Positions 2 to 35,436 of a DNA stretch of 64,000 nucleotides are shown in pieces. This DNA comes from Candidatus Uhrbacteria bacterium (GTDB lineage: Bacteria; Patescibacteriota; Patescibacteriia; UBA9934; GWF2-40-263): assembly GCA_016219925.1 (NCBI GenBank), contig JACRJU010000015.1, positions 4,672-68,671 of the forward strand, in the 5' to 3' direction. The position numbers were made by a program, and so were the translations under genes. Every line of letters begins with the position of its first letter. Position 1 is the first letter of the stretch. Under the pieces are notes generated by a model. The model ran no database searches. It worked only from the letters and a program-made list of their open reading frames with translations, and was not told where the DNA came from.

Positions 2-1111
2 ATGTTTGCGAGCCGTTTGCAGGGGGCCGTTTATCGGCATTGCTTTAAACCTATTGCTTTTCGTTTTGATGCGGAGTCTGTTCATGATTGCCTGACGAAA
101 ATGGGGGCGTGGATGGGTCGGCACCCTTCGCTTCGTAAGACTGCCGGTCAGTTATGGCATTATGAACACCCCGCTTTGCGCCAACAGGTTTGCGGGATTT
201 CGTTTGAGAATCCCGTTGGCCTCACGGCGGGGTTTGATAAAGACGGCCTGCTCACGGATATTTTGCCAGAGGTGGGCTTCGGTTTTGCGGAGATTGGTTC
301 AGTGACGGGGCGACCCTGTTCGGGAAATCCGCGCCCGCGACTTTGGCGCCTGCCGCACAGTCGGGCGCTGCTGGTTTATTATGGGTTAAAAAATGAAGGA
401 TGTGAGACCGTGGCGCACCGGCTCGCGCAGTCGCGGCGGCGCATCCCTCTCGGAGTCAGTATTGCCAGAACCAACGATCAGATAGCCTGCACGTTGGAGA
501 TGGGTGTTGAGGATTATCGACACTCCTTCAAAACGGTTGAACCGGTCTGTGACTATTTGACGGTCAATATCAGCTGTCCGAATGCGTTTGGCGGAGAACC
601 GTTTACCCATCCCGATCGGCTTGATTTTTTGCTTAGAGCTCTTGATGAAATCCAAACAATCAAACCGGTTTTTCTAAAAATGCCGGCGGATCTTTCCTTA
701 AGCGAAGCGGAAGAACTCGCGACGGTTGCGCTTACACATCGCGTTCACGGTTTTATTTTTTCCAACCTGACAAAGCGTCGCGATACTCCCGCGATTAGTC
801 CACGCGACTCTTTCGCGTCTGCGAAGGGCGGAATCAGCGGACGACCCGTGTTTGAACCGTCCAATCGGTTGTTAAAGCATTTTTATAGATCCTATGGCGC
901 GCGCTTCACGCTGATCGGATCCGGGGGAGTCTTTTCAGCGGACGATGCTTATGAGAAAATTTGTTCAGGAGCGACTCTTATTCAACTCGCCACCGGGATG
1001 ATCTTTGAAGGTCCACAGGTGATCGGACAGATCAATAAAGGCGTGGTGGAGCGGCTCGAACGCGACGGTTTCACCTCTGTTTCCCAAGCGGTCGGCGCTT
1101 ATCTTCGTTAA
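2..1111 (+). CDS. pyrD: Dihydroorotate dehydrogenase (quinone), class 2; 5' end truncated by the window edge
   Basis: The translation has the motifs GFGFAEIGSVT and NPRPRLWRL and a C-terminal FMN-binding GSGGV region typical of PyrD. The ORF is already open at base 2. Confidence 0.8.
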   Translation: MFASRLQGAVYRHCFKPIAFRFDAESVHDCLTKMGAWMGRHPSLRKTAGQLWHYEHPALRQQVCGISFENPVGLTAGFDKDGLLTDILPEVGFGFAEIGSVTGRPCSGNPRPRLWRLPHSRALLVYYGLKNEGCETVAHRLAQSRRRIPLGVSIARTNDQIACTLEMGVEDYRHSFKTVEPVCDYLTVNISCPNAFGGEPFTHPDRLDFLLRALDEIQTIKPVFLKMPADLSLSEAEELATVALTHRVHGFIFSNLTKRRDTPAISPRDSFASAKGGISGRPVFEPSNRLLKHFYRSYGARFTLIGSGGVFSADDAYEKICSGATLIQLATGMIFEGPQVIGQINKGVVERLERDGFTSVSQAVGAYLR

Positions 1112-1117
1112 GGGATT

Positions 1118-2017
1118 ATGGCAAAAGTAACGTTTATTGGACTTGGAGAGATTGGCGGAGCGATAGCTCATGTGATTGGGTTACGCGCGAAAATTTGTGC
1201 ATGGGATAAAGACCCGGCAAAAGTTCTTGGGGGAGTGCGCTCAATGGAGGAAGCGTTAAGCGGAGCCGATGTGGTTTTTTTGTGTATCCCCTCTTGGGTC
1301 ATACGAGATGTGGCGACACAAGCGGCTGGGTATCTGTCTCCCCAGACGATTGTGATTTCGTTGGCGAAGGGTTTGGAAGCCGACTCGCTCAAAACAATGG
1401 ACGTGGTTTTGCAGGAGGTGTTGCCGGAATATACCGTTGGGGTGATGGGCGGCCCCCTTCTTGCTGAAGAACTGATGGCTGACCTGCCGGGAGTGGGAGT
1501 GCTTGGCGCGAAGAAAGCTGACGCCTTTCAAGTTTTACAACCTCTTTTTGCAGATTCAAATTTACGTCTTGAATACACAAATGATTCAACCGCCGTTGCC
1601 CATGCGTCTGTTTTGAAAAACATCTATGCCGTGGCCTTGGGCATCGCCGAGGGTCTTGGCTGGGGGTGGAATGGCAAAGGTTGGCTTGCGGCGCGCGGAC
1701 TTAAAGAGATGAAAGAGATCATGGCTCATCTTAAATGCGATGTTTCGGTTGCTTCCGGCACGGCTGGAGCTGGTGACTTTCTCGCTACGGCCTTAAGCCC
1801 CGATTCGTTTAATCGCACAACCGGTCTTTCGATTGCTAAAACCGGAGAATGTACACAGCCCAGTGAAGGATGCCGAGCGGTAGCCTCTGTCATTTCACGG
1901 CTCGGCAAAAAAGACGCGGATCTCCCGATTCTCTTTTCTCTTGATCGCATTATCAACCAACATGAATCTCCAAAAACCGCTTTTCAAAATTTGTTCGCGT
2001 CCGAAGACGCGACGTAA
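1118..2017 (+). CDS. NAD(P)-dependent glycerol-3-phosphate dehydrogenase-like oxidoreductase
   Basis: There is an N-terminal Rossmann motif (FIGLGEIGGAIA). The C-terminal helical domain, with ARGLKEMKEI, resembles the GpsA motif TRGLAEM. The gene is adjacent to an FGGY kinase. Confidence 0.5.
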   Translation: MAKVTFIGLGEIGGAIAHVIGLRAKICAWDKDPAKVLGGVRSMEEALSGADVVFLCIPSWVIRDVATQAAGYLSPQTIVISLAKGLEADSLKTMDVVLQEVLPEYTVGVMGGPLLAEELMADLPGVGVLGAKKADAFQVLQPLFADSNLRLEYTNDSTAVAHASVLKNIYAVALGIAEGLGWGWNGKGWLAARGLKEMKEIMAHLKCDVSVASGTAGAGDFLATALSPDSFNRTTGLSIAKTGECTQPSEGCRAVASVISRLGKKDADLPILFSLDRIINQHESPKTAFQNLFASEDAT

Positions 2018-3176
2018 AGGCCATGTCCTTGTTCTAGACGCCGGGACGACCGGAGTCAAAGCTTTTGTTTTCAATGCGCAGGGAGATATTCTGGCCAAAG
2101 CCTATCGTCCACTCAAAAAATCTCGGCCAAAAAATGGCTGGGTTGAGCAGGATCCTCTTGAGATTTTGGGCTGCTGCCGCATGGTCATTCAAGAGGCGGT
2201 ACAATCTTCTGCGGTCGTCGTTTCAAGCATTCGAGGGATGGGAATAACCAATCAACGTGAGGCAACGGTCGTTTGGAATCGCCAGACAGGCAAGCCCGTC
2301 TATCCCATGATTGGTTGGGAAGATCAGCGCACACGCACCTTCTGCACGATCCTTAGGAAGGAGCACGGAAAAGCCATTCAGGAAAAAACCGGCCTGGAAG
2401 TCCTGCCATATTTTTCTGCTTCTAAATTGAAATGGATTTTGGAGCGTCATGACTTTTCGACCCTGTTGTTCGGGACGCTCGATACATGGCTTCTTTGGAA
2501 TCTTTGCGATGAGCATCCGCATTTGACGGATGAAACCAACGCGGCACGCACCCTTTTGTATGATATCGGCAAGCGCAAATGGGATGCTCAACTTTTTGAT
2601 TGGTTTGGGATTCGTCCTGACGTCCTGCCTCGAGTGATGCCTTCGCGTAGTTGCTTCGGTCACCTCGCAAAAGACATTATCGGTAAACCGATCTCCATCC
2701 TTGCCATGTGTGGGGACCAACAAGCAAGCACTTATGCCGCGTTGCGCATAAAAGGTGTTCAAAAGAATCATGTCACCAAAGTGACCTATGGAACAGGAGT
2801 TTTTTTGGTGCAAGTGATCGGACGAAAGATGCAGATTCACGCGCCATTTTTTACAACGCTGATGCCGGCTGTTGGTAAGGGAAGCGTGTTTGCGTTGGAA
2901 GCAAAGATTGAAGGAAGTGGGGAAACCGTGACACGACTTTTGAAGTACCCAAAATCATTAGAACGATATTTTAAAAATTTGACAAAAAAAGTTAATCATC
3001 TCGTTGTTCAGCTTCCTGTCAGGCCAAGGCAGATGGTGGTTGATGGAGGTGTGGCGCGTGATGGGATTGTTGTTGAAATTCAAGAGCGAGCAACGGGCAT
3101 TGAAACCTGTTTGCAGACGCCATTTGATGGGACGGCGCTTGGGTGTGCTCTGCTTGTTTGGGACGCTGTTCATTGA
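1941..3176 (+). CDS. FGGY-family carbohydrate kinase (glycerol kinase-like, shorter than canonical GlpK)
   Basis: The N-terminal motif VLVLDAGTTGVKAFVF matches FGGY kinases, and the sequence WVEQDPLEI is characteristic. The start is uncertain: the ORF overlaps the upstream gene, and the next in-frame Met is at 1962. Confidence 0.55.
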   Translation: MIALSTNMNLQKPLFKICSRPKTRRKGHVLVLDAGTTGVKAFVFNAQGDILAKAYRPLKKSRPKNGWVEQDPLEILGCCRMVIQEAVQSSAVVVSSIRGMGITNQREATVVWNRQTGKPVYPMIGWEDQRTRTFCTILRKEHGKAIQEKTGLEVLPYFSASKLKWILERHDFSTLLFGTLDTWLLWNLCDEHPHLTDETNAARTLLYDIGKRKWDAQLFDWFGIRPDVLPRVMPSRSCFGHLAKDIIGKPISILAMCGDQQASTYAALRIKGVQKNHVTKVTYGTGVFLVQVIGRKMQIHAPFFTTLMPAVGKGSVFALEAKIEGSGETVTRLLKYPKSLERYFKNLTKKVNHLVVQLPVRPRQMVVDGGVARDGIVVEIQERATGIETCLQTPFDGTALGCALLVWDAVH

Positions 3177-3234
3177 CGGCGACCCGATTTTGTGCTATAT
3201 TGTATGCGGCAATCACGCCTCTGAAGGGAACAAC

Positions 3235-3522
3235 ATGCACTCGGACCGGACTCTCATCGGTGCCCTCGTCCTCGTGACGGTCTTCGCCGTCAGCCTCCTC
3301 GGCTACGACATTTGGCAGCTCGCCACCGGAACGGTGGACCTCAACAAGCACATTCCGTTGATGGTGCCGCTCGCGCTCGGTTCGATCGTCGCCTGCGGGG
3401 TCGTGGTCATCCGTCACGATCGTCCCGCGCGCGCGGCCGTATTCGCGCATGTGCGCAAGGACTCGGCGTTCCACTCCGAGAATCTGCCTACCGAGCGAGC
3501 TGCTCCCGCCCACATCGAGTAG
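3235..3522 (+). CDS. Small hypothetical membrane protein in a GC-rich island
   Basis: An internal ATG at 3235 follows a GAAGGGAA RBS-like stretch. The product is 95 aa with two predicted TM helices. The region is visibly GC-rich relative to its flanks. A hairpin followed by a T-run sits downstream at 3551-3588. Confidence 0.4.
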   Translation: MHSDRTLIGALVLVTVFAVSLLGYDIWQLATGTVDLNKHIPLMVPLALGSIVACGVVVIRHDRPARAAVFAHVRKDSAFHSENLPTERAAPAHIE

Positions 3523-3598
3523 CGCCGGACATCCCGGCCACCTCCCCCTCTGATGATCACCCTTCCGGTGGTCATTTTCTTTTTTTACTCTTGCGCGT

Positions 3599-3961
3599 AT
3601 GATACGAGAGGTTATGCTGCGAAATGTACAGTTTTCACGCGTCATGGCGGCTCTCTTGATTGGGTTGATTTTTGTTCCTTCCGCGCATGTGTTTGCGGCT
3701 CACATGTCGATGCCGATGGACTGCGAGCGAGGCACGCCGTGTCCACTCGTTGCACCGACCGGTTGTATTGACTTATGTGTGCGCACATATGAAGCGCAAA
3801 AAGAAGTCGCTTTGGGAAAAACCTTGCCTTCCGGAATGTTCGGGCAAACGACGCCAGTTTCCCGCGTCTTTCCGATCGAGCCAACTCTACCGATTTTTTA
3901 TCAACGCCTTTTCTTTCCCCAAGGGACAGATCTCTCTTTATTGCGCCAGCGGCGTAATTGA
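3599..3961 (+). CDS. Small secreted Met/Cys-rich protein (possible copper-binding periplasmic protein)
   Basis: It has a signal-peptide-like N-terminus (MAALLIGLIFVPSAHVFAA) followed by HMSMPMDCERGTPCPL. It lies directly upstream of the HMA-domain protein and copA. Start choice between 3599, 3614 and 3644 is uncertain. Confidence 0.4.
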   Translation: MIREVMLRNVQFSRVMAALLIGLIFVPSAHVFAAHMSMPMDCERGTPCPLVAPTGCIDLCVRTYEAQKEVALGKTLPSGMFGQTTPVSRVFPIEPTLPIFYQRLFFPQGTDLSLLRQRRN

Positions 3962-4002
3962 TCAAAACCGGTTTTTGTAAGGAGATTCATTCTTAACCGG
4001 TT

Positions 4003-5358
4003 TTGTGTATGGCTCAAAAGTATGATTTTGAATTAAGGGGGACCACCTGCCAGAGTTGCGAGGTCGTCATTGAGCGCGATCTCTCTACTCTTGGTGGAGT
4101 TCAACATGTGAGTGCTTCTCACAACACAGGACGTCTAACGATTGAGACGTTTGAGGTTGCTAATGAGGAAAAATTGCTCAGACGCATCAACGAACGATTG
4201 GGTCCTCATGGGTATCAGGCATCGGAAGAATATTCCCGTCAAAAAATTCAAGCCCCATGGAATCTGTCGCGCATTGGCGGCGCTTTGGTTTTGATTCTTG
4301 CGGTGTATGTGATTTTTAAGTGGATGGGATTGTCGACGTTCTCGCCGCAGGCAGAGTCGGCAGGAGGATTGTTCGCGATTTTTGCCATTGGACTGGTCGC
4401 TTCGGTTTCGTCCTGTACCGCTGTTGTTATTGGTTTGCTCGCGGCGGTTTCGTCTGCAAAAGCTAAAGAACAAGCTCACGTCTCATCCAAAGATCGTTTA
4501 CGCCCACATTTTTTATTTAACATCGGCCGCATCGTTGGGTTTGCCGTTTTTGGCGCGCTGATTGGTCTAATCGGTTCGGCCTTTCAACTTTCAACGACGC
4601 TCAACGGTCTTTTCGTCATTGTCATCGCGCTGGTGATGATGAGTCTCGGATTGCATCTGCTTGATGTGGTGCCTTCCCATTTTGCTCGGCTCGCGCCACC
4701 AAAGTGGCTGTCGCATCGCATCCACGCCTTGCAAGATAGTAAGCATCCGGCCGTGCCGTTTGTGTTGGGAGCACTCACGTTTTTTCTTCCATGCGGATTC
4801 ACCCAGTCCATGCAGTTGTATGCACTTTCGCTCGGTAATCCCCTGCAGGCCGCTTTGGTGATGGCCGTATTTGCGCTTGGAACCGCGCCTGCGCTTTTAA
4901 GCGTTGGAATCTTAACTTCTGTTGCGAAAGGCAAAACCCTTCAACGAGTGATGCGCGTTGCCGGTGCCGTTGTGGTGGTGCTTGGTCTGACGAACATGCA
5001 AAACGGTGCGGCTTTGTTTGGAATGAATTTTTCGCCGAAGCATACATCCGCGGCGTCTCCTTCCGCAACGCTCTTGCAAGGAGGGCAGCAATATATCCAA
5101 ATGGAAGTGACATCGCGATCCACCTACGAACCTGATACGCTTGAGGTCATCGAGGGGGTGCCGGTTGAATGGCAGGTGTATGGGTCCAAATCTATGGGAT
5201 GCGCCAGCACGCTTGTTCAAAGGGATTTCGGCGTGCAAACGCGCCTACAGCCCGGCATTAACACCATTCGCTTCACCCCAAACAAAGTTGGAAACTTTTT
5301 ATTCAGCTGTTCGATGGGAATGGTGCGCGGAACGCTGATCGTTAAGCCGCGGGGATAA
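4003..5358 (+). CDS. Heavy-metal-associated (HMA) domain fused to a DsbD/CcdA-like transmembrane core and a C-terminal cupredoxin-like domain
   Basis: The N-terminus has a TCQSC metal-binding CxxC in an HMA-like fold. A polytopic membrane core carries paired Cys motifs (SSCTAV and FLPCGF) like the DsbD_2/CcdA family. The C-terminal ~90 aa form a beta-rich domain with a CSMGM motif. Confidence 0.55.
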   Translation: MCMAQKYDFELRGTTCQSCEVVIERDLSTLGGVQHVSASHNTGRLTIETFEVANEEKLLRRINERLGPHGYQASEEYSRQKIQAPWNLSRIGGALVLILAVYVIFKWMGLSTFSPQAESAGGLFAIFAIGLVASVSSCTAVVIGLLAAVSSAKAKEQAHVSSKDRLRPHFLFNIGRIVGFAVFGALIGLIGSAFQLSTTLNGLFVIVIALVMMSLGLHLLDVVPSHFARLAPPKWLSHRIHALQDSKHPAVPFVLGALTFFLPCGFTQSMQLYALSLGNPLQAALVMAVFALGTAPALLSVGILTSVAKGKTLQRVMRVAGAVVVVLGLTNMQNGAALFGMNFSPKHTSAASPSATLLQGGQQYIQMEVTSRSTYEPDTLEVIEGVPVEWQVYGSKSMGCASTLVQRDFGVQTRLQPGINTIRFTPNKVGNFLFSCSMGMVRGTLIVKPRG

Positions 5359-7658: not shown

Positions 7659-7690
7659 AAAACCAGACGTCTGAGTCTGGCAGCAGCTCG

Positions 7691-8386
7691 TTAGGGGTGA
7701 GCCCGGCGGGCTGTTTTGATTACGTGGCGGTAGGTGCGGACGTAGTCGTAGTTCGACCAGGCTGTCGCGGCCATGATAAGAGCGGTGTCGATCCATCCCA
7801 GAAGCGGACTTCCGATCGGGTTCAGGATCAGGTGGAAAACGAGGATGCCCGGAAAGCAAATGCGTGTGCGCCATTTGCCCGAGCTTCCTGCACTGATCTT
7901 GACGCCGGGCGCTTCACGCAGGGCCCATGCGCGGTGGAACATGCTCGTCGCATCGCGTTCGAAGCTGATCCATGCGATCAGGATCACCTGAACGAAGAAG
8001 ATCGGAGAAGCGCCAGAGAGCACGATGAGCGCCGTGTCGATCGTGATGCCTCCGAGCTTTGTAAGGTACTGCACTTTGTCTGCGTGAGAATCGTACAACT
8101 CACCGAAAGGACTCACGATCCCGAGGCGACGTGCGATCCAGCCGTCCAGCCCATCGCAGATCGCTCCCAATGAAGAGAGCCCGATGCCGACCCAGCGTAG
8201 AACGAACAGGTCAAAGGTCAACTCGTGGCCGGCGAGGAACAGGCAGAAGGTGACGAGCAGGATGAGCAGGCCTAGACGCGAGAGCCACGCGCCGAGGATG
8301 GTGATGTAGTTGGCGGTGTTCTGCCGCGTGAACGAAAGCAATTCTTCGTCGTAGAAGAAATGAGCAAGAGTCGCGATAAAACGCAC
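7691..8386 (-). CDS. CDP-alcohol phosphatidyltransferase family protein (PgsA-like)
   Basis: The motif DGLDGWIARRLG...G...DSHADK matches the CDP-OH phosphotransferase signature D-G-x2-A-R-x8-G-x3-D-x3-D. It is a polytopic membrane protein on a GC-rich segment. Confidence 0.7.
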   Translation of the reverse strand: MRFIATLAHFFYDEELLSFTRQNTANYITILGAWLSRLGLLILLVTFCLFLAGHELTFDLFVLRWVGIGLSSLGAICDGLDGWIARRLGIVSPFGELYDSHADKVQYLTKLGGITIDTALIVLSGASPIFFVQVILIAWISFERDATSMFHRAWALREAPGVKISAGSSGKWRTRICFPGILVFHLILNPIGSPLLGWIDTALIMAATAWSNYDYVRTYRHVIKTARRAHP

Positions 8387-8395: not shown

Positions 8396-9361
8396 TTAGA
8401 CCATCAGTCCTTTGAACTCCTCGACCATGGGGACGAGTTCGCTTTCAAGGCCGTAAGCATCTGCGATCGTAATCGCCGTCCAGTCTGCTGTCAACAACGA
8501 ACGAAAAACTTTTTCGAAAGGCTCTTTTCCCACGATGGGTTGGCGCTCGACAGGAAGACCGCGCTTCGTATACAGCCGTTCAAGAATCGCAAAACGTTTT
8601 TGCACGCGCGGATGATCCTGTGCGTCTGTCAAAAAAATGAAATGGAACGGGGCGCAAAGTTTTTTCGTTGCGGCCGTTACATCAAACCCGTTCATTTCAT
8701 TGTGATTGAGTTCGGGGATGACATTAAAGAACGCCGGAATTTTTCCGGTTTCGTTGAATTTGATTTTCCAGTTGTAGGCGATGGCTTGATTGCGCGTGGA
8801 CGAGTAGATCACCGGAATTTTTCCGCGCAATCGTCCAGCCAAATGCTCACCAGTCTTTCGATACATGAGCGGCTTGAGTGTTTTGACCAGACGAGCACTG
8901 TCACGCAATCCTCGTTCATCGCCGAGTAGTTTGAGAAGGGCGCGCAAAGCGAATCCGAGAGCCATGCGTGGTTGGATGCCGGTGTTTGGAATTTCGATAT
9001 AGGGTGCATGATGTTTCTTTGCCAGATCGATGAGTTTTCCCCCCGAGGCAATCACCGCCACAGGCAGTTTATGTTTACGGGCTGTTTCATATCCATCGAG
9101 TGTTTCCTCCGTATTGCCCGAGTATGAGCCAGCGATCACAAGAGGTCGAGAGACACACTCGATGGGAGCGGACAGTCCATAATCGGATGAGATAGAGAGT
9201 GGGAGTTTAGGATGACACAGAAGCGCGAGGTCGGCCGCCAAGTGCGATCCGCCCATGCCGATATAAAAAGCCTGATCAAACGGCTTGAGATGTGAAGCGT
9301 TTTGAACCTTTGGAACGAAGGTGAATTGTTGAGGAAATTGTTTTACTGCGTTGGACATCAT
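8396..9361 (-). CDS. SIS-domain bifunctional phosphoglucose/phosphomannose isomerase (archaeal-type PGI/PMI)
   Basis: The motif IGMGGSHLAADLA is SIS-domain-like. Length and architecture resemble PGI/PMI. I placed the start at MMSNAVKQ (9361) rather than the ORF maximum. Confidence 0.55.
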   Translation of the reverse strand: MMSNAVKQFPQQFTFVPKVQNASHLKPFDQAFYIGMGGSHLAADLALLCHPKLPLSISSDYGLSAPIECVSRPLVIAGSYSGNTEETLDGYETARKHKLPVAVIASGGKLIDLAKKHHAPYIEIPNTGIQPRMALGFALRALLKLLGDERGLRDSARLVKTLKPLMYRKTGEHLAGRLRGKIPVIYSSTRNQAIAYNWKIKFNETGKIPAFFNVIPELNHNEMNGFDVTAATKKLCAPFHFIFLTDAQDHPRVQKRFAILERLYTKRGLPVERQPIVGKEPFEKVFRSLLTADWTAITIADAYGLESELVPMVEEFKGLMV

Positions 9362-10466: not shown

Positions 10467-12242
10467 TTGATCCCAGAAGGACAAGAACCCGGTCTACAAA
10501 AGTTAAAGATCATGAAAGAAGTTTGGGAGGCTTATTTATCCGGTGAGGAAAAGACGCGTTATTTGAAACTTGCGGCTGGCTTGACGGTTGTGGGGGCGGC
10601 AGAGGGGATCGCTCCTTCATTGATCGGTCTTGCTATGGATAATCCAAGCGCAAAAATGGCCGCCATGCTTGCTCTCGGTTATCTTGGAACGCAAACCGTG
10701 ACCGGATGGGTTCAGAAAAAATTATCGGTTGACTTTGATCGTTTTCTCCATGACATCATGCAGAAACAGGAAGGATTGAATCAACGCTTGGCGCGCGATC
10801 TGGCCTTTCAACCCGGAGAACGCATGGCTAAAGGTGAAAGTCGTGGAAAAATCACCGCGACGCTTCGACGATCGCAAGATGCGTTTCAAGATATTCTTTA
10901 CTCGGTGGCAAAGACCCAAGCGCCTGCGATTGCGAGTACGGTCGTTGGTCTTGGAATGATGCTTGCAAATGATTGGCGACTTGGACTCGTGAGTTTGACG
11001 AGCGCTCCCATCGCGGTCGCGATTTCAAGACGCAATGAAAAGAAATCTGGACCGATTATTGAGGAGGCTTATCGAAATGAAGAAAAGATTGCTGAAGAGG
11101 TGGAGGATCAACTTCTTGCGCATCAGGATATTGTTTTAAGCGGGATGCGGGAACAAATGGCAGGACGTCTGGAAGGGCTTGCCAAGAAGAAAGGAGATCT
11201 CTCGCACGAACGTCGTTCTGCTCGACAAGGGATGCAGTTTCAATCGCAGACGCTTAACGGCGGAGTGTTTGCGGCTTTGACAGCGGGAGGGGTCGCGCTT
11301 CGGGAACTGGGAGTGCAACAAAGTGGGGCGATCGTGACCGCTCTTGTTTATAGCGGGATGTTTCGAAATAGTTGGGATCAAATCGTTTATGCAAATAATT
11401 CTCTTCTGGAAAGTCTCAAATCTATTGAGATGATGGAGGAGGTTTTTAACGGGTATGCAGATGCAGAGGTTGAGGCGGATGATCAACGGATCGGGGCTTC
11501 AGAAATTGAAGAATACTCCTTCGAGGTGGATCATGTTTCTCTTGGGCTTGAAGGAGAAGGAAAAATCATTGATGACGTATCTTTTCGCGTTCCAGCCGGA
11601 GGTGTCGTGCGTTTAGAAGGGAAGAGCGGTCAAGGAAAGACGACGCTCACGCGGCTTATGTCTGGATACTATCAACCGAGCCAAGGAGAAATTCGAATCG
11701 GAGGGCACGCGGTTTCGGAGATAAAAAAAGCTGGTCCCGATTCTCTTTATGCGCGTGTCGCGTATCTCTCACAACATCCCTACATTTTTGAAAGTGGGAG
11801 CATCAAAGATAATTTAGCGTTCGGGAATCCGGACGTCACGGATGATCAAATGCGGGCTGTGCTTCAGGAGTTGGAATTAGCCCCTCGTTTTACAATAAAA
11901 GGGGTCCTTCAGCTCGATGAGAAACCCCAAGGACTTTCTGGAGGAGAAAAAGCACGATTGGGTTTGGCGCGTGTTTTGTTGAAGATTCGGTCTCACGAAA
12001 ACGGTGGGGTGGTCTTTTTGGATCAGGCCACCGAAGAGCTTGATGAACAGACTGAAGCGCAGGTTGCCCATATTCTTCTTGAAGAAAAGAGACAACGTCC
12101 CAACACAACGTTTGTGATCATCAGCCATCGTGAGGAATTTGTTGAGGCGTTATCTCATCCAAAAGAGGGAGAGGGACTTTCGATACAACGCGTCCGTTTA
12201 AGTGGGGGGAAACTTGTGGAGGATTCATCTGTGGTAAACTAA
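10467..12242 (+). CDS. ABC transporter, fused N-terminal membrane/helical domain and C-terminal ATPase
   Basis: It has Walker A (GKSGQGKTT), the ABC signature LSGGEKARL, and Walker B (VVFLDQATEELD). The start is TTG at 10467 or ATG at 10512. Confidence 0.75.
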   Translation: MIPEGQEPGLQKLKIMKEVWEAYLSGEEKTRYLKLAAGLTVVGAAEGIAPSLIGLAMDNPSAKMAAMLALGYLGTQTVTGWVQKKLSVDFDRFLHDIMQKQEGLNQRLARDLAFQPGERMAKGESRGKITATLRRSQDAFQDILYSVAKTQAPAIASTVVGLGMMLANDWRLGLVSLTSAPIAVAISRRNEKKSGPIIEEAYRNEEKIAEEVEDQLLAHQDIVLSGMREQMAGRLEGLAKKKGDLSHERRSARQGMQFQSQTLNGGVFAALTAGGVALRELGVQQSGAIVTALVYSGMFRNSWDQIVYANNSLLESLKSIEMMEEVFNGYADAEVEADDQRIGASEIEEYSFEVDHVSLGLEGEGKIIDDVSFRVPAGGVVRLEGKSGQGKTTLTRLMSGYYQPSQGEIRIGGHAVSEIKKAGPDSLYARVAYLSQHPYIFESGSIKDNLAFGNPDVTDDQMRAVLQELELAPRFTIKGVLQLDEKPQGLSGGEKARLGLARVLLKIRSHENGGVVFLDQATEELDEQTEAQVAHILLEEKRQRPNTTFVIISHREEFVEALSHPKEGEGLSIQRVRLSGGKLVEDSSVVN

Positions 12243-12855: not shown

Positions 12856-13302
12856 ATGAAAGTCATTCTTCTTGTAGACGTTAAAGCGCTGGGAAAGCAG
12901 GGAAGCATCGTTGAAGTGAGCGACGGGCATGCCCGTAATTTTCTTTTTCCACAGAATCTCGCTGTTGCTGCCACTCCCGAGGCGCTCGAGAAAAAACGAT
13001 TGCGAGAAGAAGCGCTAAAAAAAGAGTCTCACAAAGAGTTGAGTCTTTTTGGCGATCTGGCCGCGAAACTCGACGGGCATGAAGTCCTGATCGAGCAGAA
13101 AATGAATGACAACGGAACGCTCTATGGCGCTGTCGGTGCAACACAGATCGCCTCTGCGCTAAAAAAAGACGGCTTTAAGCAAATTGATTCATCCATGATT
13201 CATCTCGATGAACCCCTTAAGGAACCGGGAGAGTACGCCGCCAAAGTTGTGCTCCCACACGGTTTTGAGGCGGACATTCGAGTTATTATCGAAGGGAAAT
13301 AA
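12856..13302 (+). CDS. rplI: 50S ribosomal protein L9
   Basis: [37 protein letters not shown] is a canonical L9 N-terminus. Start at ATG 12856; the upstream in-frame extension runs through the hairpin repeat and is rejected. Confidence 0.9.
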
Positions 13303-13304
13303 GT

Positions 13305-14924
13305 ATGCGCCACAAATATGTCTTCGTGATCGGGGGAGTGATGTCGTCAGTCGGGAAAGGAGTCACATCCGCGTCCATCGCTAAACTGATGCAAGCGCGC
13401 GGGTACAAGGTCACCAACATCAAGTGTGACATGTACATCAACATTGATGCGGGGACGATTCGTCCGACGGAACACGGAGAAGTCTTTGTGGGAGAGGATG
13501 GAATTGAGGCGGATCAGGATTTGGGAAATTACGAACGCTACACAGGCAACGCCATGAAGGCAGAAAATTACATTACGACCGGTCAGGTTTATCAAGAAGT
13601 GATTCGCAAAGAGCGCAATTTGGAATACGCGGGAGAAGACGTCGAAGTCGTGCCAGACATCCCAAACGAGATTATTCGCCGCATCCAGGCCGCCGCAAAG
13701 AAAGATCAGGCGGAGATTACCGTTGTGGAGTTTGGGGGGACGGTTGGGGAATATCAGGTTCTGCTTTTTTTGGAAGCCGCGCGCATGATGAAGCGTGCCC
13801 ATCCCAAAGATATCGCTTTTGTGCTCGTGAGTTATCTGCCGGTTCCCAGCCATATTGGCGAGATGAAAACCAAGCCGACCCAGCATGCTTCTCGTACCCT
13901 AAATGAGGCGGGCATTCAGGCGGATTTTATCGTGGCGCGCGGGCCGCATATGCTCGATAAGCCGCGCTGTGATCGCTTGTCGGTTTTTTGCAATGTGGAC
14001 GAAGGGCATGCGTTGAGTGCCCCTGATGTCGAGACGATTTATGAAGTGCCGCTCGTATTGGAAAATCAGGAATTTTCAAAAAAGATGCTTCAACGGTTGA
14101 ACCTCAAACCGAAGAAGAAGGACTTAGAGGAGTGGGGGAAGTTCGTAAAAAAAATTAAGAGTCTGAGACGCGAGTTGAACATTGGGATCGTTGGGAAATA
14201 TTTTGGGACGGGAGATTTTACGCTTTCCGATTCCTATATTTCGGTGATTGAATCCATCAAACACGCATGCTGGTCGCAGGGGGTGAAACCGAAACTCACC
14301 TGGATCAACTCTGAGACTTTTGAAAAAAATCCCTCACAACTTAAGACGCTTTCTTCTTACGATGGCATTATTGTTCCGGGTGGCTTTGGGGAAAGAGGAG
14401 TCGAGGGGATCATCGCCGCCATTCAGTACGTTCGGGAAAACAAGATTCCGTATTTTGGGTTGTGTTATGGAATGCAGCTTGCGTGTATCGAATTCGCGCG
14501 GCATGTGGTCGGCCTCAAAGAGGCTCACACCACGGAGATCAATCCAAAAATAAAAGTTCCCATCATCTATCTCAATCCCCTGCAGGCCCGCAATGTGGTC
14601 GAAAAAAAGTACGGGGCGACGATGCGTCTTGGCGCGTATGCTTGTGAACTCGTTTCAGGAACCAAAGCGCGCAAGGCGTATGGCAAGCAGATGATTTCCG
14701 AACGCCATCGCCATCGATATGAGTTTAACAATGCGTATCTTGAAACGCTTCGAGATGCCGGGTTGGTAATTTCAGGAGTGAATCCACAACAACATTTGAT
14801 TGAAATTATTGAGCTAAAAAACCACCCGTTTTTTGTGGGGGTCCAGTTCCATCCGGAGTTTCAATCGCGGCCGCTTGATCCGCACCCGTTGTTTTTGGCT
14901 TTCGTCAAAGCCTCAATGAAATAG
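13305..14924 (+). CDS. pyrG: CTP synthase
   Basis: The N-terminus is YVFVIGGVMSSVGKG, and the C-terminal glutamine amidotransferase domain contains GLCYGMQ. Confidence 0.95.
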   Translation: MRHKYVFVIGGVMSSVGKGVTSASIAKLMQARGYKVTNIKCDMYINIDAGTIRPTEHGEVFVGEDGIEADQDLGNYERYTGNAMKAENYITTGQVYQEVIRKERNLEYAGEDVEVVPDIPNEIIRRIQAAAKKDQAEITVVEFGGTVGEYQVLLFLEAARMMKRAHPKDIAFVLVSYLPVPSHIGEMKTKPTQHASRTLNEAGIQADFIVARGPHMLDKPRCDRLSVFCNVDEGHALSAPDVETIYEVPLVLENQEFSKKMLQRLNLKPKKKDLEEWGKFVKKIKSLRRELNIGIVGKYFGTGDFTLSDSYISVIESIKHACWSQGVKPKLTWINSETFEKNPSQLKTLSSYDGIIVPGGFGERGVEGIIAAIQYVRENKIPYFGLCYGMQLACIEFARHVVGLKEAHTTEINPKIKVPIIYLNPLQARNVVEKKYGATMRLGAYACELVSGTKARKAYGKQMISERHRHRYEFNNAYLETLRDAGLVISGVNPQQHLIEIIELKNHPFFVGVQFHPEFQSRPLDPHPLFLAFVKASMK

Positions 14925-14934: not shown

Positions 14935-14970
14935 CCAAGCGGGGTTGACAAAACCCCGTTTTTTTGATAT
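14935..14970 (+). promoter_or_regulatory. Overlapping intrinsic terminator hairpin and sigma70-like promoter (TTGACA, 17 bp, TATATT)
   Basis: The hairpin GGGGTTGACAAAACCCC is followed by TTTTTTT. The same sequence supplies TTGACA at 14942-14947 and TATATT at 14965-14970, 17 bp apart. Confidence 0.5.
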
Positions 14971-15036
14971 ATTTTGTGGTTCCCAAGTTTCTTTTCTCAA
15001 CCCATCACACGCCGGCGAACCGGCCTTGGAGGATCC

Positions 15037-15531
15037 ATGATCGCTCTGATCGAGTTCTTCGTCCTTCTCTTCGCAACGGTGGGTCTGTTCACGCTTGCGT
15101 GGCGGATTCTCCGAAGCGGATGGGGGTACGTCGCCAAGGGCATCGGCTGTATCGCCGTCATCGTCCTGTGGTGGGCGATGATCAATCAGCCCTTCAGCGG
15201 TCGCTGGGGTGGTGACCATGGCGTCCTCACCGACATGATCGCGACCTTTGGAATCATGATCGGGGCCACTTGGGGACTGCGCCGTGTCGGCAACGATCGG
15301 CGCCGTCAAGCAGCGGTCGTGGGAGGGACGCTCGTTCTCCTCGCGCTCATGTGGATTCCGCGCGTGCTCTCTGGCACATTCACCCTCCCGCCTGTGCCCT
15401 CAGCTCCCGCGACGTCCGTCCCTTCACCTGCTCCAGCTCGCGATGCCGGCCCCCGCCACCATCACGCGGGCGGCTTGCTCGACTGTGACGCTCTCTCCTA
15501 CGAGGGCAAGCAGAAGGCTGGTTGCCCCTAG
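15037..15531 (+). CDS. Hypothetical membrane protein with Pro/Ser-rich C-terminus, GC-rich island
   Basis: ATG 15037 is preceded by GGAGGA. There are two or three TM helices and then a PPVPSAPATSVPSPAP tail. The segment is strongly GC-rich. A strong terminator hairpin lies at 15537-15591. Confidence 0.45.
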   Translation: MIALIEFFVLLFATVGLFTLAWRILRSGWGYVAKGIGCIAVIVLWWAMINQPFSGRWGGDHGVLTDMIATFGIMIGATWGLRRVGNDRRRQAAVVGGTLVLLALMWIPRVLSGTFTLPPVPSAPATSVPSPAPARDAGPRHHHAGGLLDCDALSYEGKQKAGCP

Positions 15532-15536
15532 TTCCT

Positions 15537-15591
15537 GCCCGGATCTCAATGATGACCCATCATCTGCGAGATCCGGGCGCTCTTTTTTTAT
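15537..15591 (+). terminator. Rho-independent terminator
   Basis: The 11-bp stem GCCCGGATCTC/GAGATCCGGGC is followed by CTCTTTTTTT. Confidence 0.6.
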
Positions 15592-15621
15592 CAATCTCTG
15601 TGGTGGTATAATCTCGCCGAT

Positions 15622-17206: not shown

Positions 17207-18262
17207 ATGCCCCTTGAATCGTTTCAAATCGTTCGGGTTCTGCTCTTGAGTGCGCTCGCGTTTGCGACCGCCTTTGCCTGGGCGCCCCTCTTGATGCATG
17301 CCCTGCAAAAGTGGCGCATGGCCAAGACGATTCGACCCGCTTCGGATGCGCCGGTGTATGCAAAACTCCATGCAAAAAAAGTCGGAACGCCAACGATGGG
17401 TGGCATTTTGATCTGGGCGACGGTATTGTTATTGGCGCTGGTTTTTGATGCTCTGTACACGTCCTTTCCGCAAAACGCCATTTTTGCACAGTTCACTTTT
17501 CTTTCGCGCCAGCAGACTTTGCTTCCTTTGGGAGCTCTTGTGGCTTCAGCGATCGTGGGGTTTGTGGATGATTATTTCAACGCGCGCGGTATCGGACCCA
17601 AGGGCGGGGGATTGCGCATGCGTCACCGATTGTTTATCTACACCGCTATTGCGGTGGTGGGGGCATGGTGGTTCCGCGCGAAACTTGATTGGGATTTACT
17701 CCACGTGCCGTTCATTGGTGATTTCAACATTGGCTTGTGGTATGTCCCCTTTTTTATTTTTGTAATTGTGGCCACAGCGTTTTCGGTAAATGAAACTGAC
17801 GGACTGGATGGTTTGGCTGGCGGAACTTTGCTCACCTCGTTTGGCGCCTATGCGATAATCGCTTTCGCGCAGGGGAAATATGATCTGGCGGTTTTTTGCG
17901 GAGTGATTCTTGGAGCGCTTTTGGCTTTTCTGTGGTTCAACATTAATCCAGCCAGTTTTTTTATGGGCGATACGGGTGCGATGGCTTTGGGAGTGACGCT
18001 CGGCATCGTGGCCATGCTCACCAACGCCGCCTTGCTGTTGCCGATTGTCGGTTTTATTTTTTTGTTGGAATCGCTTTCGGTGTTGGTGCAAGTCGGTTGG
18101 CGTCTGACGTTTAAGAAAAAACTTCTTTTATCCGCGCCGTTCCATCACCATCTTGAAGCAACGGGTTGGACCGAACCGCAGATTGTGATGCGGCTATGGG
18201 TGATTTCGATGGTGTTTGCGGCCATTGGAGTCAGTTTGGCTTTGCTTGATGCTTTGATGTAG
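17207..18262 (+). CDS. mraY: Phospho-N-acetylmuramoyl-pentapeptide transferase
   Basis: It is a polytopic membrane protein with the MraY-type motifs GTPTMGG, NAVNLTDGLDGLA-like (NETDGLDGLAGG), and C-terminal HHH. Confidence 0.9.
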   Translation: MPLESFQIVRVLLLSALAFATAFAWAPLLMHALQKWRMAKTIRPASDAPVYAKLHAKKVGTPTMGGILIWATVLLLALVFDALYTSFPQNAIFAQFTFLSRQQTLLPLGALVASAIVGFVDDYFNARGIGPKGGGLRMRHRLFIYTAIAVVGAWWFRAKLDWDLLHVPFIGDFNIGLWYVPFFIFVIVATAFSVNETDGLDGLAGGTLLTSFGAYAIIAFAQGKYDLAVFCGVILGALLAFLWFNINPASFFMGDTGAMALGVTLGIVAMLTNAALLLPIVGFIFLLESLSVLVQVGWRLTFKKKLLLSAPFHHHLEATGWTEPQIVMRLWVISMVFAAIGVSLALLDALM

Positions 18263-18282
18263 AGACCTCTATAAACGCGTTC

Positions 18283-19386
18283 ATGAAACATTCTGCTCAC
18301 ACAATGGATGTCCCGCTCCTTCTGATCGTTTTCGCGATTGTTCTTTTTGGATTGATCATGCTCTGGTCCGCTTCGGCGCCCAGCGGCTATGAGCAGTTTT
18401 CAGACAGCTATTATTATTTGAAGCATCAACTCATTTTTGGATTCATTCCCGGGGTGGCCGCGATGTTTCTTCTTTCACGTGTTTCCTATACGTTTTGGCA
18501 CCGACATGCGTGGAATCTGCTCATCATTTCTCTTGCCTTGCTCGTTTTGGTTTTTATTCCGGGCGTTTCCGCAGGAATCGGGACAGCTCATAGCTGGATT
18601 TCGGTAGGTGGATTGTTTTCCGTTCAGCCCTCCGAGATCGTGAAGCTGACTTTTTTGTTTTATCTTGCGGCGTGGTTGGGCGCGCGCGATGAACACGGGA
18701 TGCGCGATGCGCATTCGGGTTTCTTGCCGTTTCTTCTCGTACTCGGAACAATTATGTTGTTGATGGTTCTTCAGCCGGATATCGGCACGATGTCCATCAT
18801 CGCCGCCATGGCGCTCGTGGTGTATTTCACGGCAGGTGCGCCGATCGTTTATGTGGGGGGACTCATTTTGGCGGGGGTGGGAGCGCTCACGATACTCATT
18901 AAGGCCGCCCCCTATCGCGCCGCGCGATTCACAACATTTCTGCATCCCGAGCTTGATCCAAAAGGAATCGGTTATCACATCAATCAAGCTCTTCTTGCGA
19001 TCGGTTCCGGCGGATTTTTTGGTCTTGGGTATGGCCACTCGCGACAAAAGTTTCAGTACCTGCCGGAAGTCGCTGGTGATTCTATTTTTGCCGTTGTGGG
19101 AGAAGAACTCGGATTTGTAGTTTCTTTGCTGGTGATCGGAATATTTTTGCTCTTGTTGTGGCGTTTGCTTCACATCGCGCAACATGCGCCGGACAAATTC
19201 GCCAAATATGTCGTCATCGGTATTGCGTCTTGGATTTGTATTCAGGCGTTTGTGAATATCGGTTCGATGGTTGCCTTGATGCCCATCACAGGTGTACCGT
19301 TGCCGTTCATCAGTTACGGTGGAACATCCCTTGCGGTGACAATGGCCGCAATCGGTGTTGTGCTCAACATTAGTAAACACGCATGA
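18283..19386 (+). CDS. ftsW: Peptidoglycan glycosyltransferase FtsW/RodA (SEDS family)
   Basis: It has SEDS-family topology and motifs (PSE.VKL; GGTSL near the C-terminus) and sits between mraY and murG. Confidence 0.85.
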   Translation: MKHSAHTMDVPLLLIVFAIVLFGLIMLWSASAPSGYEQFSDSYYYLKHQLIFGFIPGVAAMFLLSRVSYTFWHRHAWNLLIISLALLVLVFIPGVSAGIGTAHSWISVGGLFSVQPSEIVKLTFLFYLAAWLGARDEHGMRDAHSGFLPFLLVLGTIMLLMVLQPDIGTMSIIAAMALVVYFTAGAPIVYVGGLILAGVGALTILIKAAPYRAARFTTFLHPELDPKGIGYHINQALLAIGSGGFFGLGYGHSRQKFQYLPEVAGDSIFAVVGEELGFVVSLLVIGIFLLLLWRLLHIAQHAPDKFAKYVVIGIASWICIQAFVNIGSMVALMPITGVPLPFISYGGTSLAVTMAAIGVVLNISKHA

Positions 19387-20447
19387 AGATTTTGTTGGCC
19401 GGAGGAGGAACACTCGGCCCCGTCACCCCCCTGCTTGCTCTCGTTGAAGCCTGGCGCGCACGCGACCCGCAAGCGCAATTTGTGTTTGCCGGAACTCCAA
19501 CCGGGCCTGAACGTTCGATTGTTGAACGTCAGTATCACGTTGCGTTTCGGCCAATTCCGGCTGTGCGATTTGAACGGTTTTTCAGTTTGGAGTGGTTCGC
19601 TTTGCCGGTGTTTGTCCTTATCGCTCTGATCGCCGCTTTCAAAATGATCATTCAGGAAAAACCTGATGTGATTGTGGGGGCAGGAGGATATACCCAAGTC
19701 CCGATGATCATGGTTGGGTGGATTCTGCACGTACCTTCGTTTGTATTTCAGACGGATGTACGCCCCTTATTATCTACACGTCTCGCCGCGCCATTTGTGC
19801 ATCGCATTTATCTTGGATGGTCGCAGACAACATCGTTTTGGTTACACAAAAAAATGGAAGTCCTAGGTGTCCCCGTCCGTGCGTCTTTGCAGACAGGCTC
19901 ACGCGAGCGCGCCATAAAACGATTTGGTTTGGATGCCAGCAAGAAAACTCTGTTGGTGATTGGTGGCGGAACCGGTTCGCTCTGGTTCAATGAACAGTTG
20001 GTTCAGATCGTTCCTCAGCTTGCGCAAGCGTTTAATGTGATTCATTTGACGGGGCGCGGAAAAACGCCGCGCTCGCTTGAGCACCCACCGGGAGGATATT
20101 TCTGTGCGGAAATTTTAGATGAGGGGATGGAAGATGCCTATGCGGCGGCAGATCTCGTTCTGGCGCGCGCGGGGATGGGAACGATTAGTGAACTGTCGGC
20201 TCTTGGCAAATGCGCAATCCTGATTCCATTGCCTCATTCTGCCCAGCGCGAGAATGCTCAAGCGATGGAACAAGGAAGAGCCGCGCGTGTGCTTGATCAA
20301 GATCAGACAGATGCGTCAATGCTTCTTGATGAAATACGTTCACTGATGGAAGACCCGCAAAAACGGGAGGTGTATCAACAGCGCATAAGAGTTGTGTTGC
20401 GCACGGATGTCACAGACACTGTCATCAATCACATTTTGCAAAAATAA
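19383..20447 (+). CDS. murG: UDP-GlcNAc:undecaprenyl-PP-MurNAc-pentapeptide GlcNAc transferase
   Basis: The N-terminal G-loop (ILLAGGGTLGPVTP) and a GT28 C-terminal domain match MurG. It is translationally coupled to ftsW. Confidence 0.85.
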   Translation: MKILLAGGGTLGPVTPLLALVEAWRARDPQAQFVFAGTPTGPERSIVERQYHVAFRPIPAVRFERFFSLEWFALPVFVLIALIAAFKMIIQEKPDVIVGAGGYTQVPMIMVGWILHVPSFVFQTDVRPLLSTRLAAPFVHRIYLGWSQTTSFWLHKKMEVLGVPVRASLQTGSRERAIKRFGLDASKKTLLVIGGGTGSLWFNEQLVQIVPQLAQAFNVIHLTGRGKTPRSLEHPPGGYFCAEILDEGMEDAYAAADLVLARAGMGTISELSALGKCAILIPLPHSAQRENAQAMEQGRAARVLDQDQTDASMLLDEIRSLMEDPQKREVYQQRIRVVLRTDVTDTVINHILQK

Positions 20448-20483
20448 AGAGACACCTCATCGGGTGTCCCTTCATTTTGACGA

Positions 20484-20657: not shown

Positions 20658-20777
20658 AAGAGTATGGTTTATGTGAATTAGCATTGGAAGTTTACGTGTC
20701 TGGTTTTATTCTGTCAAACCTCATATTCCACTCTTTCATTTGAACAGAAATACCGTCCTAAAAACTAGGACGGTATT

Positions 20778-35359: not shown

Positions 35360-35436
35360 ATAACGCCGACATCATATGCTAGACACAATTTTTTTTCAAT
35401 GTTACGATCGCTCAAGTTCTTTTTGGAGGGATATTG

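Follow-up and report, generated by a model that had tools for sequence, protein, structure and literature searches.

Single genes that carry a promoter and a terminator of their own, deviate in base composition and stand between conserved genes are reportedly known from phages as morons, a concept said to go back to Hendrix and Juhala in 2000. MraZ regulates its own expression through repeated boxes of the GTGG(G) type that lie in the mra promoter, as known from work on Escherichia coli and Mollicutes, and the mraW RNA motif of Rfam is a structured RNA upstream of mraW/rsmH in Actinobacteria. Selected codon-usage bias can reportedly be graded on a strength scale introduced by Sharp and co-workers in 2005; in an ultra-small, presumably slow-growing bacterium of the Candidate Phyla Radiation (CPR) such codon selection is not expected. 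A C bias in 2-/3-fold pyrimidine-ending codons generally marks ancestral and highly expressed genes, and a U bias in 4-fold boxes has been reported for highly expressed genes (PMC7374057). Here, we compare with these systems a 64-kb window (the whole stretch of DNA that was analysed), which comes from the metagenome-assembled genome of an ultra-small Candidatus Uhrbacteria bacterium from groundwater (Patescibacteria/CPR) and lies on a contig of 77,317 bp, and eight genes in it, mraZ among them, that form GC-rich islands. We consider it rather probable that these blocks are native, separately transcribed Uhrbacteria genes in which selection at the level of the nucleic acid keeps silent sites rich in G and C.

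The window had a GC content of 0.514 and tightly packed genes, with the + strand as the majority strand (proteins MBI53703xx, locus tags HZA85_*). It contained pyrD, gpsA, a Cu-ATPase gene, pgi, pyrG, tdk, mraY-ftsW-murG, mur ligases, ftsEX and uvrABC, together with mraZ-rsmH, cysS, mgtE, ftsI-murE and seven tRNAs, and its pyrG-based relatives were all Patescibacteria-type metagenome-assembled genomes (MAGs). In a curated list of 59 genes (8 islands and 51 background genes), the GC content at third codon positions (GC3) of the background was 0.538 ± 0.052, ranging from 0.41 to 0.60 with no gene above 0.603, and all eight island genes lay above this range at 0.68–0.93, with a gap in the distribution between. 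These were island 1 (3235–3522, +), a 95-aa membrane protein (MBI5370315.1, GC3 0.83); island 2 (7691–8386, −), a divergent, PgsA-like CDP-alcohol phosphatidyltransferase below the NCBIfam cut-off (0.74); island 3 (15037–15531, +), a 164-aa membrane protein with a Pro/Ser tail (0.74); island 4a (20956–21708, −), a 250-aa protein of unknown family (0.68); island 4b (21897–22714, −), its frameshifted paralog (0.69 over the listed 21815–22714); island 5 (35437–36312, +), a divergent short-chain dehydrogenase/reductase (SDR) with a disordered-looking N-terminal extension (0.72); island 6, mraZ (45201–45632, +), of 143 aa with two MraZ domains (0.73); and island 7 (55844–56293, −), a 149-aa all-beta near-orphan (MBI5370369.1, 0.93). 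A preliminary description of this DNA had named eight genes as GC-rich with G/C-dominated third positions and would have yielded had their GC3 fallen within the normal distribution; all eight were outside the range of the 51 genes. Its coordinates and gene descriptions also stood (Pfam domains CDP-OH_P_transf, SDR and MraZ, the paralogs, the all-beta protein), apart from the 21815 end of island 4b: this frameshifted copy has its N-terminal part at 22705–22370, its C-terminal part at 22079–21897 in another frame, and a true 3′ end at about 21897.

The anomaly persisted when GC3 was conditioned on amino-acid composition (z = 4.2–9.9 for the islands; background standard deviation 1.8, maximum 3.0). 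The pooled islands and the remainder of the window differed in dinucleotide signature by a distance of 164 (x1000); length-matched controls gave 32 ± 10, and none of 500 reached the island value. By itself, mraZ was deviant as well (133, x1000), and the relative abundance of AA/TT fell from 1.36 in the background to 1.00 in the islands. Total GC in 150-nt windows was clearly conspicuous only at 3191–3597, 14995–15596, 35421–36342 and 55754–56369, so the earlier wording of conspicuously GC-rich blocks applies to third positions for all eight but to total GC for four blocks only. There, mraZ and the paralog pair were no more extreme than many background fluctuations, which makes their signal specific to third positions.

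An artefact could in principle produce such a pattern, through chimeric assembly or through genes assigned to the wrong strand, whose GC3 would be the G-rich first positions of antisense genes. A periodicity-based gene caller did prefer antisense open reading frames (ORFs) in six islands, and a high C content at third positions mechanically yields long antisense ORFs rich in G at first positions. Against this, the strands agreed across Pfam domains, homologs, paralog alignments, NCBI gene calls and an AlphaFold model (predicted local distance difference test, pLDDT, of 91.5), and promoter, Shine-Dalgarno and terminator strands all matched the stated gene strands. Logan contigs of run SRR12113407, which may or may not hold the source reads of the MAG, were 100% identical across the junctions of two islands. 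Chimeric assembly, which the preliminary description had wished to see excluded, is thus an unlikely source of the islands, and the artefact reading as a whole is effectively refuted, with a residual probability close to nil.

Relatives of the genes point to vertical inheritance in three cases. The nearest homologs of mraZ formed >120 clusters of 77–90% identity, and the named ones came from Candidatus Uhrbacteria, Parcubacteria or Patescibacteria. Its GC3 was above the locus median in 56 of 62 related metagenome loci (mean +0.098, p = 2e-10), and among ten orthologous families compared across relatives its excess was the largest (+0.116), the other nine (L9, L27, PyrG, RsmH, FtsL-like, UvrA, UvrC, CysRS and FtsE) ranging from −0.019 to +0.016. 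The island 7 gene is a near-orphan, with 7 matches among 1.84 billion representatives. All three homologs with retrieved contigs were syntenic, divergent from a DUF4178 gene, and in L054 ftsI and a hyp560 homolog were present too (L003, L034, L036, L042, L052, L054 and L056 are labels of related metagenome loci). GC3 of these homologs was 0.935, 0.83 and 0.705 vs 0.51, 0.545 and 0.38–0.49 in their neighbors, an excess of 0.28–0.42. The ortholog of island 3, directly 3′ of pyrG in L042, had a GC3 of 0.67 vs 0.49 for pyrG and had kept the promoter within the terminator loop. Both genes evolve much faster than their neighbors (33–48% identity vs 66–77%), and comparing islands 3 and 7 with their more distant orthologs, the same codon was used at conserved residues no more often than expected if randomised (observed/expected 0.52/0.53, 0.33/0.34 and 0.28/0.31). 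Since GC3 is high although silent sites are saturated, it represents a level that every lineage maintains at equilibrium and not a fading donor signature. In L054, a 136-aa paralog of the 149-aa family (3140–3550, +) lies directly upstream of the GC3-rich copy and has a GC3 of 0.39 vs 0.705; this pair is a natural within-family contrast on the purpose of the bias.

Neither absence from relatives nor a discordant phylogeny, as would mark a horizontal island, was therefore found for mraZ and islands 3 and 7, which had syntenic orthologs and same-lineage homologs. Acquisition from a high-GC donor, as first proposed, fails for the mraZ, 149-aa and 164-aa genes in view of lineage-tracking homologs, conserved excess and synteny, and mraZ, which had been thought compositionally foreign to its dcw neighbors, is vertically inherited, its anomaly being largely an embedded RNA structure described below.

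The shift itself was uneven among codon classes. Islands and background differed in the C fraction of 2-fold pyrimidine-ending codons (0.76 vs 0.35 ± 0.08), the G fraction of Lys/Gln/Glu codons (0.74 vs 0.42), Ile codons (0.75 vs 0.43) and the mixed 4-fold boxes Thr/Ser4/Val/Leu4 (0.81 vs 0.63), while the Ala/Pro/Gly/Arg4 boxes were nearly unshifted (0.66 vs 0.60). Pooled log-odds shifts by codon class were 1.8, 1.4, 0.9 and 0.24. The shift was thus strong where both leading bases of the codon are weak, and island 7 alone was shifted in every class. Of the properties looked for in horizontal islands, atypical composition and codon usage were present (GC3, signature distance); a uniform shift in all synonymous boxes was not, weak boxes having shifted by 0.3–0.4. 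A gene from a 65–70% GC genome would shift every box, so the unshifted Ala/Pro/Gly/Arg boxes bear no donor signature, and a high-GC donor, refuted for three genes and disfavored by this codon anatomy for the other five, is not supported. The codon dialect of native mraZ was the same as that of the other islands, of the island orthologs and of the GC3-rich genes of L034 and L036. The island bias was C-rich on either strand, whereas background genes followed strand skew. Within the islands, third-position G/C was likelier before a codon starting with A or T (0.82 vs 0.70, z = 3.9), which was not so in the background. Generic avoidance of AT runs was rejected, within-gene synonymous shuffles giving only z = −1.3 although the next-codon context effect was significant. 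A U bias in 4-fold boxes was missing, and the dependence on the next codon argues for selection that acts on the nucleic acid as such.

The same codon classes bear on GC-biased gene conversion, under which the islands would be recombination hot spots with mismatch repair favoring G/C. The fast evolution of islands 3 and 7 would suit it, as would the C-terminal tails of islands 4a and 4b, identical at 22 of the last 23 aa and only ~39–49% identical in the remainder, a pattern suggestive of a converted or duplicated 3′ end in this pair. Yet gene conversion should raise every codon box, and seven genes of the eight showed no shift in Ala/Pro/Gly/Arg; mraZ belongs to the slowest-evolving genes, and island boundaries coincide with promoters and terminators. 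As a general cause it is very improbable.

The selection that we favor instead would have its clearest instance in mraZ. The identity of the gene was confirmed by Pfam (PF02381, E = 9e-39, two stretches), with rsmH at 45719–46618 and an FtsL-like gene downstream. In an alignment of 27 mraZ genes, from loci of GC 0.41–0.67, RNAalifold predicted a structure of ~140 nt with 6 helices and 42 pairs at 45318–45457 (+), that is mraZ nt 118–257, codons 40–86. Three blocks, CCCAAGGAGGAGTGGG, TTGCCCCTGGG and CTCATGCTTGCGGG, were invariant at every position including silent ones, and the prediction pairs the invariant blocks with one another and leaves AAGGAGGAG unpaired. Ten degenerate codons of conserved amino acids used one invariant codon in all 27 genomes, nine of them ending in G/C. 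In the predicted structure 96.8% of cells were paired, compared with 35–51% when partners were slid by 1–3 columns. Ten pairs had changed on both sides, against 2–6 in the slid controls and 5.1 ± 1.1 in shuffles, none of 500 of which reached ten. The best covarying pairs (120–255, 129–183, 153–168, 186–246 and 189–243) joined a third codon position with a third codon position. Excess same-codon identity in mraZ averaged +0.11 and reached +0.14 to +0.23 in closer relatives, compared with +0.03 to +0.05 in neighboring genes. Conservation with compensatory changes beyond coding needs is what is expected of a structured cis-acting RNA, and the mraZ element, as predicted from the alignment, qualifies as one.

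A covariance model built on the element scored 141–177 bits in 63 loci and 122 bits in a further two, but only 44–87 bits in 14 loci with more distant mraZ genes, so that the element is present in ~65 related loci. Where it was present (at least 120 bits), GC3 of the structured third of the gene exceeded the locus background by +0.25 and that of the flanks by +0.09 and +0.11; where it was absent (<90 bits), the corresponding values were +0.05 for the structured third and +0.07 and +0.005 for the flanks. Across the clade, the embedded RNA structure accounts for much of the GC3 excess of mraZ. The flanks were also high here and in the closest relative, L056 (0.82 and 0.67 vs 0.55), so a gene-wide dialect acts on top of the RNA element. 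No Rfam 15 family matched over 44950–45800 at gathering score or E ≤ 5, and no paper describing an mraZ-embedded RNA element was found.

Upstream, the mraZ control region (45078–45166, +) comprises a TTGACG-17-TAAAAT promoter, three repeats, a hairpin and a T-rich tract, and was conserved in most of the 27 relatives whose upstream regions were read. The repeats GTGGAAT, GTGGAAC and GTGGGGA at 45095, 45115 and 45125, spaced by 20 and 10 nt, overlap and follow the −10 box and are candidate MraZ operator boxes. In the 3′ part of the leader, a variable hairpin is followed by a conserved TGCTCACTTTTATTT, an arrangement resembling a transcription attenuator. No Shine-Dalgarno sequence precedes mraZ here, and by eye none was found in the upstream regions of the relatives, which makes the unpaired AAGGAGGAG notable. 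The three GTGGnnn direct repeats at a strong mraZ promoter, conserved in relatives, would match the known autoregulation of MraZ; unlike there, a conserved attenuator-like hairpin and T-tract follow, and mraZ lacks a Shine-Dalgarno sequence. Like the mraW RNA motif, the mraZ element is a conserved, covarying RNA on the mraZ-rsmH transcript, but it lies wholly inside the mraZ frame, has wobble-to-wobble stems and exposes AAGGAGGAG (the two were compared via Rfam scans only). We infer that the element affects how the mraZ-rsmH transcript is translated or how stable it is.

The folding of other island mRNAs was less uniform. Relative to dinucleotide shuffles, z was −3.2 for island 7, −1.9 for island 3 and −1.7 for mraZ, against +0.9 and +0.4 in two control genes, so that structured mRNA is a suggestive, not conclusive, common thread of the islands.

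The second common feature of the islands was their separate transcription. Promoters were scanned by match to the consensus TTGACA-N16–18-TATAAT only, with at least 10/12 overall and at least 5/6 in the −35 box. Seven sites in the window had at least 10/12 matches to the sigma-70 consensus, and five of the seven lay 34–111 nt upstream of islands 1, 2, 3, 6 and 7 (binomial P ~ 8e-4), three of them carrying the TG of an extended −10; of the remaining two, one belongs to tRNA-Gln and one to a small zinc-ribbon ORF. The highest-scoring upstream promoter reached 10.1 for islands vs 8.2 for other genes (p = 8e-5; p = 4e-4 when restricted to other genes with an intergenic gap). Terminator-like hairpins were found directly 3′ of islands 1, 2, 4a, 4b and 7, and several islands had good Shine-Dalgarno sequences. 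Judged by these predicted signals, each island gene is transcribed on its own, from a near-consensus promoter and in most cases with a separate terminator; the preliminary description had already noted strong terminators or promoters at the borders of several blocks.

Island 1 has a promoter-like site at 3173–3201 (+; TTGACG-17-TATATT with TG, an extended −10), 33–34 nt 5′ of the start codon, and a terminator-like hairpin with T-run at 3552–3576 (+); its protein matched nothing in Pfam, NCBIfam and PHROG searches. The promoter-like site of island 2 (8466–8494, −; TTGACA-17-TACGAT) lies within the 3′ end of pgi, and a terminator-like hairpin is present at 7662–7681 (−). The island 3 promoter (14945–14973, +; TTGACA-17-TATATT with TG, 11/12) has its −35 box in the loop of the pyrG terminator hairpin (14937–14961), the same architecture as in L042. 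Island 4a is preceded, 72 nt upstream on the − strand, by TTGACA-17-TAATTT, and its putative terminator (20921–20938, −; CCAGGCCCTTCTGCCTGG + T7) is identical to that of island 4b (21859–21876, −; CCAGGCCCTTCTGCCTGG + T7). In island 5, the promoter-like site (35380–35408, +; TAGACA-17-TACGAT with TG) is divergent from the tRNA-Gln promoter, and a weak 4-bp GC hairpin with T6 on the 3′ side fell below the terminator-scan threshold. The island 7 promoter (56404–56432, −; TTGACA-17-TATGTT with TG) was unchanged in four of four orthologous loci (cTTGACAAAAGC ... TGnTAT), its −35 box and extended −10 being invariant; it is followed by a ~110-nt leader with an AAGGAG Shine-Dalgarno sequence and, beyond the gene, by what reads as a compound terminator hairpin with T-run (55767–55823, −), conserved in L052. 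The AlphaFold model of the protein was all-beta (pLDDT 91.5), with no significant PDB or BFVD structural match.

Two observations concern the leaders. That of island 7 (56294–56403, −) shares the blocks CGCCTCTCATT and GGGGGCGGGATC.TG.TGATTTC with L052 (370–531), whose ortholog is 48% identical; it could be a structured leader, and no Rfam match was found for it. The exact 11-mer ATC(A/G)CGCCTCT occurs in the island 1 leader (3212–3222, +), in the island 7 leader (56384–56394, −) and in the ortholog of L052, 10–11 nt past the −10 box. Chance alone would yield an estimated ~0.06 exact matches across the window, and the 11-mer is a possible initial-transcribed or 5′-end motif common to these leaders. 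The small zinc-ribbon ORF with the other strong promoter (20484–20684, −), which lies between murG and tRNA-Lys and is not one of the 59 curated genes, encodes 57–66 aa with CxxC...CxxC and an acidic Ala/Pro/Glu tail, has its own TTGACA-17-TAAACT promoter (20717–20689) and terminator, and is GC-rich through its amino-acid content only.

Several observations weigh against our reading of native genes under selection on nucleic acid. Islands 1, 2, 4a/4b and 5 had no orthologs in the ~130 related loci. In L034, the closest pyrG relative (91% identity over the compared part), the Cu-ATPase/pgi slot holds a different GC3-rich gene in place of the PgsA-like one, a 591-aa FtsH-family paralog (3149–4924, +) with a GC3 of 0.69 vs 0.50 and the same dialect. 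Island 4b is a decaying tandem duplicate (frameshift), and half of the islands lie on the minority strand (four of eight; Fisher p = 0.014). The strongly promoted zinc-ribbon ORF has an ordinary GC3 of 0.45, which rules out that a strong promoter alone predicts high GC3. Island 1 mRNA was not unusually structured (z = −0.3). The mraZ structure was predicted on the same alignment that was used to count pairs, and its sequences are related to one another, several loci being near-duplicates. L9 (GC3 0.48) and L27 (0.47), the two ribosomal protein genes available, were without bias here and in 16–18 relatives. The U bias in 4-fold boxes was absent, the share of T-ending codons being unchanged or lower in the islands in every box except Pro.

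In view of the first two of these points, islands 1, 2, 4a/4b and 5 may be mobile or recently gained, and exchange among related genomes is possible for them. A corresponding alternative is that some or all of these five genes are moron-like cassettes, single genes that arrived horizontally, promoter and terminator included, from other Patescibacteria or from a donor of higher GC and settled between core genes, their composition reflecting the source. The missing orthologs, the minority-strand enrichment and the tandem duplication with its frameshifted copy agree with this, as does gene turnover at the Cu-ATPase/pgi slot and just beyond tRNA-Lys, where L036 (background GC3 ~0.26) carries an unrelated 205-aa gene of GC3 0.78. 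So do the dinucleotide signature distance, the divergence of the PgsA-like and SDR proteins, whose scores were far below the NCBIfam cut-offs, and the many transferred genes and islands reported in Patescibacteria (PMC12455944). The likeness to phage morons extends to a sigma-70-type promoter, one gene, a factor-independent terminator, distinct GC, either orientation, variable slot occupancy among relatives and tandem duplication. However, the codon dialect of these islands is that of native mraZ and islands 3 and 7, including the unshifted Ala/Pro/Gly/Arg boxes, and is not donor-like; as mraZ too has a deviant signature, the signature does not mark foreignness here. Mobility hallmarks were lacking, with no integrase or transposase among the Pfam-scanned annotated genes (flanking direct repeats were not searched for). 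Integration at tRNA genes was rejected, since tRNA-Lys and tRNA-Gln face the islands with their 5′ sides, and integration usually takes place at the 3′ end. No viral-contig relatives were found in scans with islands 2, 4a and 5 (sequences of the island 7 family had diverged too far for such a scan), and PHROG matches were nil apart from a generic SDR match. The promoters are of host type, and the clearly foreign-looking DNA of the window is AT-rich, namely a cysS segment with a GC of 0.29–0.36. Unlike morons, moreover, the islands stand amid chromosomal housekeeping genes (pyrG, pgi, uvrABC, fts/mur) with no prophage, and three of eight are syntenic and conserved with their composition kept. 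Cassettes of this kind are, on balance, somewhat unlikely.

The 205-aa gene of L036 was considered as an island 4a homolog and proved not to be homologous. The same locus has further GC-rich patches (50–5245, 13141–13632 and 20177–20794; GC 0.53–0.62), including a 1029-aa Cys/Asp-rich, secreted-looking protein; some patches yield garbled ORFs and may be RNA genes, and an Rfam scan at gathering scores gave tRNA only.

Classical translational selection is a second alternative, in which the eight genes would be the most highly expressed of the window and would use tRNA-adapted codons as ribosomal protein genes of fast-growing bacteria do. The C bias in 2-/3-fold pyrimidine-ending codons expected of such genes was strong (log-odds 1.8 pooled and 2.5 for island 7), and the islands carry the strongest promoters of the window, several with good Shine-Dalgarno sequences. 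As in highly expressed genes elsewhere (PMC7374057), NNC was strongly preferred over NNU in Phe, Tyr, His, Asn, Asp and Ile codons; this preference was independent of strand, tied to the strongest promoters and conserved among orthologs, and log-odds of 1.3–2.6 are like the strongest cases known. Against it stand the unbiased L9 and L27 genes, the missing U bias in 4-fold boxes, the preference of the islands for G-ending Lys/Gln/Glu codons, and a dependence on the first base of the next codon that tRNA adaptation does not predict. The fixed mraZ codons map to RNA stems, and the membership is odd: a transcription factor, a frameshifted paralog and small, lineage-specific orphan proteins. Because L9 and L27 lack the bias, high expression in the classical sense is not established, and we consider this explanation unlikely. 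Of the distinct class of highly expressed genes suggested earlier, the class thus holds, by its shared dialect and own promoters, whereas the two ribosomal protein genes speak against the expression part; going by their promoters, the island genes may be highly expressed all the same.

Native genes whose silent sites are selected as nucleic acid remain, in our assessment, the best explanation, with selection rather than a local mutational process as the inferred cause. In mraZ, the ~140-nt intragenic RNA structure would fix G/C-ending codons in its stems and presumably regulates the mraZ-rsmH transcript with AAGGAGGAG unpaired. In all eight genes, third positions would be driven to C/G where the first two codon bases are weak, with loss of the AA/TT excess. 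Most likely, the purpose would be mRNA performance in strongly transcribed units, be it NNC/NNG decoding, decay resistance or stable folding. More tentatively, we propose that in this clade of ultra-small bacteria a handful of separately transcribed genes, MraZ and lineage-specific small proteins, may be selected unusually strongly as nucleic acid (log-odds of 1.3–2.6), with no such sign in L9 and L27, and may follow a gene-specific strategy of GC-armored, structured mRNA, whose clearest case would be an mraZ-embedded RNA that exposes the Shine-Dalgarno-like AAGGAGGAG and controls the division and cell-wall operon.

GC3 outliers are no general feature of Patescibacteria. In 45 pyrG loci they numbered 22 among 729 ORFs and came mostly from L003, L036 and L034, and some were shadow ORFs or possibly RNA genes. 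Extending the association between GC3 outliers and strong promoters to ~67 related loci was dropped because gene callers were unreliable: a home-made, GC3-favoring caller recovered three of the eight known islands and many spurious outliers and was unusable, the periodicity-based caller failed as described above, and promoter-like motifs are frequent by chance in AT-rich relatives.

Elsewhere in the window, two genes were outliers toward low GC3 (61957–63045, +, 0.41; 10467–12242, +, 0.43; z ~ −4 to −6 conditioned on amino acids), the more usual compositional sign of recent acquisition. Within cysS, the 540-bp stretch at 48337–48876 (codons 91–270) has a GC of 0.29–0.36 vs ~0.50 in the rest of the gene; CysRS is 547 aa long here vs ~470 in relatives and contains a CPKC...CQNKKC zinc-ribbon-like insert, and the stretch resembles a mosaic within the gene or a domain that was inserted from a low-GC source. 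The division and cell-wall cluster is split into four pieces over 44 kb, with mraY-ftsW-murG at 17207–20447, murD and a mur ligase at 27389–30169, mraZ-rsmH-ftsL-like at 45201–46995 and ftsI-murE/F at 58195–61253.

These results are a warning for composition-based detection of horizontal gene transfer in CPR/Patescibacteria, where genes can look, in GC3, codon usage and dinucleotide signature, as foreign as those of another phylum although at least three of them are vertically inherited. In a published survey of the Patescibacteria, the genes given as horizontally acquired included ribosomal proteins, tuf and chaperonin (PMC12455944), which may reflect the same compositional effect. The islands also provide a testable case of silent-site selection in an organism with very little non-coding DNA, in which an orphan gene is extremely biased and L9 and L27 are not biased at all. 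The role of mraZ is still debated, and this bacterial group cannot yet be grown alone. The structure embedded in mraZ, the gene that opens the cell-division operon, is a candidate for a new regulatory RNA and, defined by an alignment, a covariance model and coordinates, it is searchable and directly probeable.

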